A stretch of DNA of 64,000 bases from Opitutia bacterium (lineage in GTDB: Bacteria > Verrucomicrobiota > Verrucomicrobiia > Opitutales > T3Sed10-336). Position 1 is the first letter of the stretch, and every line of letters begins with the position of its first letter. The notes under the pieces are model-generated. The model was not told the DNA's origin. It was given only the letters and a program-made list of their open reading frames with translations, and ran no database searches. The position numbers were made by a program, and so were the translations under genes. The stretch covers positions 154,950 to 218,949 of the forward strand of contig JBJHCF010000002.1 of NCBI GenBank assembly GCA_050506795.1. Reading direction: 5' to 3'. This document shows, piece by piece, positions 39,548-53,387 of this stretch.

Positions 39548-40687
39548 TCAATCAACCGTGACCACCCGGACGCGGACGAATCCCGACGGCTCCGCGCCGG
39601 TCGGGAGGGTGATCCGGACTCGGTCCACGGCGGAAACCGGGGCGCCCCCGTTCGAGGCGGCGCGGTAGAATTCAGCGTCCACCGCCCGGGTGACCCCGGC
39701 GACGCCGGGTTGGATGGGTGACCAGGCCTCCAAATCGGTGCTCCACAACACCTCCACCGCCAGAATTCCGTCCACCGCCCGGTCCAGGGGATGGGTCAGA
39801 ACCAGGGGCTCCGGCCCCGACTCCAATTCGACGCGAAACCGGGAACCGCCCCCCACCGCCGGATTGTTACCGAAGGCCAGTTCGGCCAGGGTGGCCAGGC
39901 CGCTTCCGTTGTGATCCTCAGCGGGATCGAAACTCTGAAGGTCGGCGCCGGGAAAGTACCGGTTTATCAGATCGCCAAGGGAACCCGGAATTTCCGAAAT
40001 TTCCCCGCTCACATAAAGGTCGATATCGGCAATATCCAGGTAACCTCCAGGAGCGTGAACGTTCACTCGAAACAGGTGTTGACTGGAAGAAAGGACGCCG
40101 ATGCGCTCCAGGTTTCCGCTGTTGAAGGTCTCCGAGGCCAACAAGGTATTGTCGTTGTCGTAGAGCCGCACCGTCACCGGAGCCCCGGCCGTGGTTCTGA
40201 CCGAAAATGACATCGCTCGGGCACGGGAGCGGTAGGCGGGAGGGTCGACAAAGACATCCAGGCTGTTGGTGGACAGGTTGGGGCCGATCCAGGTGCGAGC
40301 CTCCTCGGAGGTAGGGCCGACCGCGAAAATGGTGCCTCCGGCGCTGGGACTCGACGGATTGCCGCCCAGGGAATTGGTCTGAAACAAAAGGCCAAGGGTG
40401 CCGTTCGATCCGGAGGGAAAGAGGGGTCCCGCGGGAACCCCCGGCGCCAGCAAGGATCCGGGCGTGCCCCCGGACTGGCCTTCACCGACCGAGGGGAAGG
40501 ATTCCCGTCCCAGAAGCGTCAACTCGGCCGCCGCCGCGGCTTGCTGGAACGCGTTCTCGTTCTCGTCGGTCCCGGCGTAAAACGTGACTTCGGCGCCGGC
40601 CCGGAAGGTGGCGAGCAGAAGCATCACTCCTGCCAGGGCGGAAGCCCGGGCTCGAATCCGGATCGGTAAAAAAGGAACGCGGTTCAT
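39548..40687 (-). CDS. Hypothetical secreted protein with C-terminal surface-sorting-like tail
   Basis: ATG 40687 overlaps the upstream TGA; signal peptide; tail 'DHNGSGLATLAELAFGNNP...WSTDLEAW...GFVRVRV'. Confidence 0.7.
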   Translation of the reverse strand: MNRVPFLPIRIRARASALAGVMLLLATFRAGAEVTFYAGTDENENAFQQAAAAAELTLLGRESFPSVGEGQSGGTPGSLLAPGVPAGPLFPSGSNGTLGLLFQTNSLGGNPSSPSAGGTIFAVGPTSEEARTWIGPNLSTNSLDVFVDPPAYRSRARAMSFSVRTTAGAPVTVRLYDNDNTLLASETFNSGNLERIGVLSSSQHLFRVNVHAPGGYLDIADIDLYVSGEISEIPGSLGDLINRYFPGADLQSFDPAEDHNGSGLATLAELAFGNNPAVGGGSRFRVELESGPEPLVLTHPLDRAVDGILAVEVLWSTDLEAWSPIQPGVAGVTRAVDAEFYRAASNGGAPVSAVDRVRITLPTGAEPSGFVRVRVVTVD

Positions 40688-41325
40688 AGGCTTGCGGCGT
40701 TCGGATTCTCTCCCAGGTCGGACATAATCCCGTCCTCCCAAAACTCCTGGCGAACCACGGCCCCCCGTTCCATCTCCGTACGGGTCTCCAGGTATCCACT
40801 GGGGAAATACGCCTTGGAGAGGCCGTGCGGCTGATTTTCGCGCATGCGAATGACCTGCCACAGCGTCCCATCGGCGCGCCACCGCCGGAAATCACCATGA
40901 AGTTGACCGTCCGCTATCTCCGCCCGCGATGCCATTTCTCCGTTGGGGTGCCAGCGAAGCCGCACGCCGTGGGAAACACCCTCACGGAATTGTTCGCTAA
41001 TCTCCGGCGTCCCGTCGGCGTACCAGCCTTCTGAAAGTCCGTGGAGCCGTCCGTCGACCACGCGCGATCGCGAACGCAACGTCCCGTCGGGGTAATGGGA
41101 AACCAGGTATCCCGAAAAAATCGTCCCATCGTCCCGGATACGCAGGACCTCGTCCTCGCGTTCGAGGTCGGCCCGGGTCAACTCGGTCAATGCCTCCTGC
41201 TCCGGATCGGGTAGAAGAGAGCGAAGGATGAGGATCCCCCCGGCCACAAGACCGGCCGCCAGCAGCAGGCGGATAAAGGGCCGTCGCCCAGGGGTTCGTT
41301 TGGCTGTGGAATCAAATGGTTTCAT
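40684..41325 (-). CDS. MORN-variant repeat protein (YwqK antitoxin-like), membrane-anchored
   Basis: Repeats 'YPDGTL..DGRLHG..WYADG..GVSHG..WHPNG..GQLHG..YFPSG'; N-terminal TM. Confidence 0.8.
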   Translation of the reverse strand: MKPFDSTAKRTPGRRPFIRLLLAAGLVAGGILILRSLLPDPEQEALTELTRADLEREDEVLRIRDDGTIFSGYLVSHYPDGTLRSRSRVVDGRLHGLSEGWYADGTPEISEQFREGVSHGVRLRWHPNGEMASRAEIADGQLHGDFRRWRADGTLWQVIRMRENQPHGLSKAYFPSGYLETRTEMERGAVVRQEFWEDGIMSDLGENPNAASL

Positions 41326-41338
41326 GACACGGTCCGCT

Positions 41339-51520: not shown

Positions 51521-51584
51521 AAAACGATGGCGGTTTGGATTAAATTTTCAGGATGAGAAACGGCGCCTGTTCGGAACCAACCGG

Positions 51585-53387
51585 TCAATCCGCGAGATCC
51601 GCGATATCGGAAACCCGGTTGAGCGCGAAACCGCCCCGTGTGCGAAAAGTGCGGGTGTGGGCGCCGGAATCGGTCAGACGTCCACGCAGTATAAGAGTCT
51701 CCTCGTAGGCGCCCGACAGGGTTCCGGTGCCCGCCGTGACGCTGGAAAAGTCGCCGCCCGGCGGCTGCACGCGCAACGTGATCTGGCGCACGACGTCGTA
51801 GGATTCGACACCGCGGGGGAGTTCGTTTTCAAAACGGGCATCGAGATTGTCATGATCGGGGTGATACGTGTGCAGGAAAGGACTGCTGGCCTGGTCGTCG
51901 TAATCGAGCGTGACCGAGACACTGATTTCCGCCGCTTCATCCAGGGGACCGCTAAAGGGCCAGGTACTGTTGCCTTCGCTCCAGGGCAGGTGGGCCACAC
52001 TGATCCGGCGGGCTTCGTCCAGTGCGGAATAGTCCAGAGCGGCCTCGGAGCGCGCCAGTATCGTTTCCCCGGCCTCGTTCCGGCCGTGATACACCCGCTG
52101 CAGAAGACGCGCATTGCCCGACCCGTTGTTATGCACCAGCAAGCGAAGCGGGAAGGGCCGGGCCACCGGCCCGAATGACTGGTCGACGTTCTCGATGACG
52201 TAGCTGCCGTCCGGGTTCTGCTGCGGTTCGCCCGCTTCGCCCAGGGCATAATCGACCAGGTAGTGGGCGACCTCGCTGACCACCGCGTTGCCCACCCAAA
52301 GACCGGTGGTCGTGTCCACTTCCGCCGTCACCGCCAGATCGAAGAGCACCATTCCACCGGAATCGCGAAGGCGAAGGATACCCGCGAACAGGTCTCCCGG
52401 GTTTCCGCCCATGGCGGCGCGGTCCAGCCCGACGACCACCTCGATATCCGACCCCGGCTCTCCGGCCGGGGGCAGGGTCCATTGGCCGTTGGTTTCGCTG
52501 AAGCGGGTAAAATCGTAGGTCAGGTCGGCAAGGTTCCGCTCGCCGCGCAGCAGCAGCGGGACACCACCGTTGATTTCGCGTTCGCCGGCGGGCGCAGGTT
52601 CCGACGCGACCAACTCCGCCGAAATCGTCACCGGCTCGGCGATACGGTTGCGCAGGCGGAGCCGGTACTGCCCGCTGCTCCTGCCGAAGTGGATGCCGTT
52701 GCTTCGCTGCAGGTCCACTTCGAACGGGCCGAAGTAGCGGTTGTATTCCTCCGAACGTACCCAGTACGCCTGGTTGCGGGCCATCGGAGTGCTGCGAAGC
52801 AGACTGGAAAAAAGCCGCTGGGGATTCGACGAACTGAAGGGGCCGCCAATGTAACGGTAGATTTCGGCCCGGTCATGGAGGTCCCGGGCGGGATTGAGGA
52901 AATCGCCCCACAGAGGCGGATTGGTCCGGGGTACGGCAAACCCGATGAAGTTCATTCCGGAACCGGTCCAGTACTGCGTGGGCGGCATCGGTTTACCTCG
53001 AAGCGTCCAGGTGTAATCGGGCGATCCGTCGGCCACCCGCACCAGGCAGGCCACGTTGCCCGCCAGACGCTGCATGGGAGAGGCTCCCGCCCAGTGCCGG
53101 TCCCAACGCAGCCATTCGGTGCTGCCCACCCGGGGCGCGGGAACGTCGTCGAAGAACTGCAGCGAAGCACTCGGCGGCACCCACATCCAGATTTCCTGGA
53201 TCGGATTATCGGGGTCGCTCCCCACCAACTCGTTCAGCGAGGCATGGGAAGCGTCAATGTGAAGATAAACCGCATTCCAGCCGGCTTTGAGTTGATAGGC
53301 CTCGGTCACCCACTGCCCGTGGAGCGAACCGCATCCGGCGACGCAAAGAAGGGAAACAAAAAAACGGGATAAAGCCTTAAGTCCCAT
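51585..53387 (-). CDS. Hypothetical secreted beta-rich protein, first gene of the cluster
   Basis: Signal peptide ending SLHG-QW; 'LKAGWNAVYLH', 'GLWVG', 'PFLHTYHPDHDNLD'; 600 aa. Confidence 0.75.
   Translation of the reverse strand: MGLKALSRFFVSLLCVAGCGSLHGQWVTEAYQLKAGWNAVYLHIDASHASLNELVGSDPDNPIQEIWMWVPPSASLQFFDDVPAPRVGSTEWLRWDRHWAGASPMQRLAGNVACLVRVADGSPDYTWTLRGKPMPPTQYWTGSGMNFIGFAVPRTNPPLWGDFLNPARDLHDRAEIYRYIGGPFSSSNPQRLFSSLLRSTPMARNQAYWVRSEEYNRYFGPFEVDLQRSNGIHFGRSSGQYRLRLRNRIAEPVTISAELVASEPAPAGEREINGGVPLLLRGERNLADLTYDFTRFSETNGQWTLPPAGEPGSDIEVVVGLDRAAMGGNPGDLFAGILRLRDSGGMVLFDLAVTAEVDTTTGLWVGNAVVSEVAHYLVDYALGEAGEPQQNPDGSYVIENVDQSFGPVARPFPLRLLVHNNGSGNARLLQRVYHGRNEAGETILARSEAALDYSALDEARRISVAHLPWSEGNSTWPFSGPLDEAAEISVSVTLDYDDQASSPFLHTYHPDHDNLDARFENELPRGVESYDVVRQITLRVQPPGGDFSSVTAGTGTLSGAYEETLILRGRLTDSGAHTRTFRTRGGFALNRVSDIADLAD

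Follow-up and report, generated by a model that had tools for sequence, protein, structure and literature searches.

What is a bacterium doing with an exported protein of 2653 amino acids (aa) that sits in a tight gene cluster beside a phage-like fibre? The cluster lies in 64,000 nucleotides (nt) of the Opitutia bacterium GCA_050506795.1 (contig JBJHCF010000002.1, 154,950-218,949), a stretch that we call the window and number from its start. At 39548-53387, six closely spaced genes, A to F, are all on the minus strand and packed as an operon, with gaps from A to F of 64, 49, 2, 13 and -4 nt. A preliminary description had seen in this locus an exported, surface-anchored machine built around the giant protein C, which it likened to TcA, the pore-forming subunit of Tc toxins. 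Characterised Tc toxins are weapons released by lysis against animal cells, and come almost only from Proteobacteria and Firmicutes. Here, the giant is predicted to have a TcA-like fold with a pore hairpin and a TcB-binding-like domain. We place a probability of about 0.5 on the reading that it is a Sec-exported, surface-tethered TcA-type needle, which would act in this organism as a cargo-less contact pore on neighbouring cells.

Gene C (42214-50175, minus strand) encodes a signal peptide, a variable N-terminal region of ~1450 aa, a predicted helical shell (residues ~1454-1844) and TcA-like pore and TcB-binding-like domains (1845-2650). By sequence, neither the protein alone nor profiles gave anything significant in Pfam, NCBIfam, PHROGs or PDB, and the likeness to TcA is borne out by structure only. 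An AlphaFold model of the last 1200 residues (1454-2653; 38 sequences in the alignment, predicted local distance difference test (pLDDT) 73) contains a helical region, a hairpin of ~270 residues (model helices 582-674 and 690-851) and a C-terminal beta-sandwich. All 21 Foldseek matches to this model at E<=1e-3 are TcA subunits, led by the pore state of TcdA1 (6sue_A, E 2.4e-8). Beyond these come one more Tc chain (E 0.047) and then, at E 0.3, the first unrelated protein. In a VIA search of 48,161 representative chains, TcdA4 (Z 11.5) and TcaA-TcaB (Z 11.4) rank first and second. Model residues 392-1197 align with TcdA1 2008-2516 (Z 12.8, root-mean-square deviation (rmsd) 7.5, 362 aligned), and the last domain aligns with the TcB-binding domain of 6l7i_A (VIA Z 8.2, rmsd 4.1, 150 aligned). 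The ESM Atlas lead for the giant is TcA_TcB_BD (0.88). Model residues 1-391 are helical and match generic solenoids in VIA, and an ESM Atlas search with giant residues 560-1460 returned weak leads only. Taken alone, the fold evidence is good, not final.

The segment that matches the TcA pore-forming domain spans ~270 residues (2035-2304; 43264-44073, minus strand) and includes a conserved Pro/Gly tip loop at 2128-2142. Hairpin length is 258-280 in 108 homologues and the Pro/Gly tip motif is present in 84 of these; length and tip are kept whether or not a capsule is present. In the same 108 homologues the hairpin sequence is the least conserved part of the protein (15-21% identity). The C-terminal beta-sandwich (residues 2366-2653; 42217-43080, minus strand) matches the TcB-binding domain of TcdA1 (2327-2516) and has 17 invariant columns across 104 homologues.

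Independent support for the TcA assignment comes from genes that adjoin other giants. We inventoried metagenome loci as the best 80 of 703, picked with a distant-group query. At 8 of 70 of them, a gene for a capsule, a TcB-TcC fusion, comes directly after a full-strength homologue of the giant. All eight have a hydrophobic, signal-like segment, and the five complete fusions that were scanned combine SpvB, an FG-GAP propeller, TcdB_midN and RHS. At the C-terminus, one capsule has a Tae4 amidase (E 1e-6) and another a Scabin-like domain (E 6e-6), each with a score close to its cut-off. With midpoint rooting, which applies to all trees here, the six capsule-linked giants in the tree all lie in the window's half. 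Two of them, from L113 and L121, branch as sister to the fibre-bearing clade of the window (Shimodaira-Hasegawa-like approximate likelihood ratio test 100, in a tree of 39 of the 108 sequences from which three capsule-linked ones were left out). In locus L132 a capsule is found alongside D, A, B and a giant that is interrupted.

Does the window's organism have a capsule of its own? No SpvB or TcdB_midN (TcB) was found in its genome (G000), a draft of 82 contigs that is 97.8% complete. The statement that the system has no TcB/TcC is supported for this genome, but as a rule for the family it gives way to the eight loci with TcB-TcC fusions. The genome-wide search did find seven RHS cores, on contigs C55, C68, C28, C35, C62, C18 and C29, none in the operon. 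Three are in open reading frames (ORFs) of 1800-2400 aa with signal-like N-termini and no SpvB, and the genome's matches to the capsule N-terminal profile cover the FG-GAP repeat part only. TcB/TcC genes do not always occur elsewhere in giant-bearing genomes (carriers), as SpvB with TcdB_midN is present in only 5 of 55 and was not found in the other 50. RHS matches occur in 41 of 54 carriers and in 258 of the 401 background genomes. These counts indicate that no capsule is obligatory. We also rejected an obligatory unlinked RHS cargo, given that 13 of 54 carriers have no RHS match and that the frequency is barely above background.

In two further loci (L154, G359:C264; L155, G081:C9:1-14000), an SpvB-RHS capsule occurs with split A and B, or with three tandem B genes, away from the giant of the same genome. 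What first looked like a giant next to the L155 capsule proved to be a spurious coiled-coil match (E 1e-4) and is not counted.

The giant family is large. Of 7996 candidates scored, 2308 match, and clustering at 50% leaves 1649 representatives. Within the phylum, 55 of 401 sampled genomes (about one in seven) encode a giant, and one more has a marginal match; the closest named relatives are Opitutales and other verrucomicrobial metagenome-assembled genomes, with identity up to 94%. Outside the phylum, about a dozen source names place homologues in Desulfobacter, Geotalea, Desulfuromonas, Nitrospirae, Omnitrophica and Acidobacteriota, and one, GURASL_19010 of Geotalea uraniireducens, belongs to a named species. 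None was found on plasmids. An N-terminal hydrophobic stretch is present in 191 of 229 full-length homologues and in 187 of 4580 internal control windows, which supports the proposed Sec export. The variable N-terminal regions of homologues bear lectin-type/LamG, RCC1, Kelch, FG-GAP, immunoglobulin (Ig) or P-domain modules. A search of the open-access literature, which did not extend to subscription papers and supplements, found no description of the family; judging from their available excerpts, PMC12057145 and bioRxiv 2023.11.21.568195, on giant proteins, concern other proteins. We conclude that this is a conserved, multi-phylum, Sec-exported TcA-like system, apparently undescribed.

Six packed genes of the expected sizes, each encoding an N-terminal hydrophobic 11-mer (Kyte-Doolittle hydropathy (KD) 2.3-2.5 in a crude test), are indeed present in the window, and the flanks are unrelated: a major facilitator superfamily gene lies downstream, and a divergent gene and then a phosphoribosyltransferase gene upstream. 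The guanine-cytosine content of the cluster is that of its surroundings. The cluster is not a chance product, since a second A-B-C-D-E set (without F, 52-66% identity) lies on contig C29 of the same genome and the core is conserved across phyla. Synteny of this kind in other genomes does not extend to a six-gene unit: the real core is A plus the giant, usually with D, whereas B is in 39 of 54 carriers, E is confined to one subclade and F to four close relatives. Gene order was inspected in 20 of the 55 carrier genomes.

A is the constant partner of the giant. It occurs in all 55 giant-bearing genomes and in 6 further genomes of the 401, and lies upstream of the giant in all 43 metagenome loci that have at least 1 kb of upstream sequence. 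The 600-aa protein (51585-53387, minus strand) comprises a signal peptide, a beta-rich N-domain (~25-219), an ASH/PapD-like Ig domain (~220-359) and an 8-stranded beta-barrel (~359-594). In VIA, its AlphaFold model (pLDDT 85.8) yields generic matches only, for the Ig domain (Z~10) and for the barrel to small barrels (Z 8-9), with no match to the whole protein.

D (41339-42211, minus strand, 290 aa) likely serves as the surface tether of the giant. It has a signal peptide, a conserved ~110-aa N-domain, DxDxDG motifs plus a C-terminal domain recurring in 105 ORFs of this genome, in 100 of them at the C-terminus. Among the metagenome loci, 50 of 70 have a D-like gene directly after the giant. The tether reading draws on two patterns in the gene sequences. 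First, the D N-domain is joined to differing C-termini by lineage (the domain shared by ORFs of this genome, GlyGly/JDVT-CTERM-like and dockerin, along with tails read by eye that we take to be PEP-CTERM-like and 'IFxDGFE'-type). Second, it is fused to the giant itself, ~35-40 residues behind the last strand, in L150 and L151. The fused D N-domains lie at the C-terminus of giants of 4755-5105 aa (L150:16748-17053, L151:12827-13159), which by eye end in dockerin/cohesin-like and Pro/Thr-rich tails. The earlier assignment of an anchoring role to both the 290-aa and the 379-aa protein is thus supported for D, by its tags and fusions, and the 379-aa F is a local addition found in four close relatives.

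How might such a device work? All subunits would leave the cytoplasm by Sec, as their signal segments suggest, and the giant, by analogy with TcA, would pentamerise into a prepore and likely assemble with A. The conserved domain of D would hold the giant while its C-terminal sorting tag, to go by the tag swapping and fusions, fixes the complex to the envelope. The variable N-terminal domains of the giant, with the optional fibre, may then bind the target surface, and the hairpin would insert into the membrane and form a channel. Relatives that have a signal-peptide TcB-TcC fusion next to the giant would use the same needle to inject the C-terminal enzyme, and the Tae4 peptidoglycan amidase cargo points to bacterial targets in those relatives. 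The membrane-anchored protein E could conceivably protect self or kin. We extend this only tentatively to the family as a whole, as a possible multi-phylum branch of Tc-like nanomachines, Sec-exported, displayed on the living producer and used on contact against bacteria, mostly as a bare pore and elsewhere as a TcB-TcC injector.

Several observations weigh against a contact pore of TcA type. The structural match is distant (10-12% identity, whole-model template modelling score 0.15-0.23), Z~12 falls in VIA's ambiguous range for long helices, which inflate Z, and no sequence profile links the giant to TcA, PF18276 also being without a match. The hydrophobicity of the hairpin tip flanks is only moderate (best 19-mer KD 1.38, against a family median of 1.25), and the net charge of the hairpin in the window is +4. 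In a draft genome TcB could be unassembled, and most loci lack the candidate immunity gene. The strongest counterpoint concerns the TcB-binding-like domain, the funnel of the needle, whose identity to the window's is 0.46 in capsule-less homologues and 0.42 in capsule-linked ones. Equal conservation without a capsule suggests that the domain still binds some partner.

This high conservation of the funnel without TcB speaks for a needle that injects cargo here too, loaded by a partner not recognisable as TcB: either an unlinked signal-peptide RHS protein, or proteins handed on from the envelope of the producer through the tethered funnel. The RHS cores of the genome, three of them in long ORFs with signal-like N-termini, could supply such a partner, and unlinked capsules do occur, with A and/or B away from the giant, in G359 and G081. 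However, several of the 13 carriers without an RHS match are 99-100% complete, RHS is hardly enriched over background, and the capsule-profile matches in this genome stop at the FG-GAP repeats, and we regard injection of cargo by the window's needle as rather unlikely.

Alternatively, the TcA fold may have been turned to a non-toxic use at the cell surface, for example as a stalk for adhesion or a conduit between cells in a symbiotic or attached lifestyle. Most loci are crowded with adhesin-type proteins (cadherin, Calx-beta, DUF11, PKD, cohesin) and have no cargo or immunity candidate, and the low conservation of the hairpin sequence would fit such a role, but its length and tip loop are conserved, the nearest outgroup loci bear toxin capsules, and the capsule-bearing L132 has the window's D-A-B-giant set. 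We consider a non-toxic role improbable. It is very improbable that the system is a particle that is released and diffuses, as Tc or umbrella toxins do, with eukaryotic grazers as its main target and D and B as loosely linked adhesins. Characterised Tc toxins do act on eukaryotic membranes, giants bear lectin-type domains and one capsule ends in a Scabin-like ADP-ribosyltransferase domain, but the sorting tags of D and its fusion to the giant at two loci speak against this reading, as does the other capsule with its Tae4 amidase.

If the tethered contact needle is the better account, are these systems Tc toxins? As in the TcA subunits TcdA1, XptA, YenA and TcaA/TcaB, a predicted hairpin is followed by a TcB-binding-like sandwich in the same order, at similar length and at the C-terminus, and some relatives of the giant have an adjacent TcB-TcC-type capsule. 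Unlike Tc toxins, the giant has Sec signal segments and no Pfam TcA match, its A partner and D tether are without Tc counterpart, and no capsule was found in 50 of the 55 carriers. The giant may work like a TcA needle, as its model suggests, yet by its components it does not count as a Tc toxin, since the searches here found neither TcB nor TcC. In Yersinia, Tc release is by lysis through the type 10 secretion system (PMC10847048). More than 99% of the TcCs in dbTC, which requires recognisable tcA or tcB neighbours, come from Proteobacteria or Firmicutes (PMC7861908), whereas giant-family hosts fall outside these groups.

A parallel for the capsules is the 'TcdB/TcaC pathway' of Zhang et al. 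2012, polymorphic toxins with a signal peptide, SpvB, a beta-propeller and RHS (PMC3482391). The capsule genes beside some giants have the same architecture, although the window's genome has no such gene. The available excerpts of PMC3482391 name no TcA partner ('TcdA', 'TcaB') for these toxins; some of the capsule genes are possibly among the supplementary tables of dbTC or Zhang 2012, which lay outside the literature search. For part of the SpvB-RHS class, the giants described here are candidate needles. Streptomyces umbrella toxins, secreted multi-protein antibacterial particles (PMC11062931), offer an analogy only, as the core here is a TcA-type needle; no homology to them was seen, and none was tested for.

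The TcA profiles tested miss the giant family. If our reading is true, Tc biology would come to include export by Sec, display on the cell surface, action without a capsule and probably bacterial targets. The same reading would also open to testing the route by which signal-peptide SpvB-RHS toxins reach their targets, and the docking site of the fibre N-domain described below. Geotalea uraniireducens could serve as a bench model for the giant family.

The fibre gene B (50225-51520, minus strand, 431 aa) encodes a signal peptide, an N-domain (19-158) like that of Bdellovibrio mosaic adhesive trimer (MAT) proteins, a fibre, and an S74 chaperone/protease domain. The S74 domain expected from the preliminary description is above cut-off (PF13884, residues 320-370, E 1.6e-9, 38 bits against 22) and has the SDxxxK motif. 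The N-domain matches NF053851 below its cut-off of 60 (E 4e-8, 33 bits; 31-45 bits in five homologues). B also matches phage tail-fibre PHROGs, and its C-termini vary among homologues. Like MAT fibres, B-type proteins have a signal peptide and a variable phage-like fibre with S74 or non-S74 ends, and their N-domain resembles the conserved ~130-aa beta N-domain of MAT proteins; unlike them, they score below the family cut-off, are encoded in an operon with a TcA-like giant and belong to a host that is not a known predator. According to Caulton et al. 2024 (PMC10769870), what the MAT N-domain attaches to is a surface element yet to be identified.

The B N-domain was found, often in two or three tandem copies, in 39 of the 54 carriers and not in the other 15, and we regard B as an accessory adhesin. 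The fibre had been proposed to select the target, but it is not a general selector, as those 15 carriers gave no match to it and homologues of the giant themselves bear variable domains of the lectin, RCC1, Kelch and Ig types. Six loci (L157-L160, L164, L165) have two or three differing genes in tandem for MAT-like fibres, 320-490 aa long and tail-collar-like at their ends, which possibly form heterotrimeric fibres. In one locus (L056:1408-2988, G266), two fibre genes upstream of the giant flank a gene that looks serpin-like by eye. Homology between the N-domains of B and D is unsupported (hhalign probability 2.7% and 21.5%). A stand-alone secreted A-type barrel of 230 aa is encoded directly upstream of a MAT-like N-domain gene in G290 (L167:7263-8844), a genome without a giant match. 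This arrangement makes the A barrel a candidate docking partner for the MAT-like fibre N-domain.

E (40684-41325, minus strand, 213 aa) has an N-terminal membrane anchor and the expected MORN_2 repeats (PF07661, E 2.7e-8, 33.6 bits, cut-off 29.6). Eight further loci have it, every one within the window's subclade, and in this genome it is encoded only beside the two giants. The immunity protein YwqK of Bacillus subtilis carries MORN_2-type repeats, and as with YwqK a MORN_2-type gene lies downstream of a putative toxin; unlike YwqK, E has a membrane anchor, no enzymatic toxin encoded beside it and a range of one subclade. YwqK binds a deaminase toxin (bioRxiv 10.64898/2026.09.29.755374). From its position, E is a possible immunity or plug protein.

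F (39548-40687, minus strand, 379 aa counted from the ATG at 40687) has a signal peptide, an N-domain of no known family and the C-terminal domain of D (E 6.5e-18). Its N-domain is present in four close relatives only and absent from the C29 copy, which marks F as a local accessory surface protein. The ~120-aa C-terminal domain of D and F, for which no Pfam model is above cut-off, also ends a 1482-aa LamG/Ig protein encoded nearby (33310-37758, minus strand) that has at least 7 close paralogues in the genome. It looks like a lineage-wide surface-sorting domain.

Relatives differ in their accessory genes. Many add a PPIC foldase, not present in the window's operon; the corresponding cluster is represented in 38 of 97 loci, and both of its members that were tested are PPIC foldases. 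Five loci (L057, L059, L060, L061, L146) represent a second operon type, in which A is split in two with a long barrel insertion, the fibre is missing, and a ~890-aa D (cadherin, RTX, Calx-beta) is accompanied by a PPIC foldase and a large cadherin/Ig protein. In L051, L132 and L138 the giant is interrupted into two ORFs, by assembly error or a real split. Finally, the start of D (window ~42180-42211; also L003, L005, L006, L007 and L132) has a recurring 'ILDFG.RI'-type leader before the signal peptide. The same leader opens E or the capsule gene in some relatives, and probably reflects a short DNA element repeated at the starts of genes.

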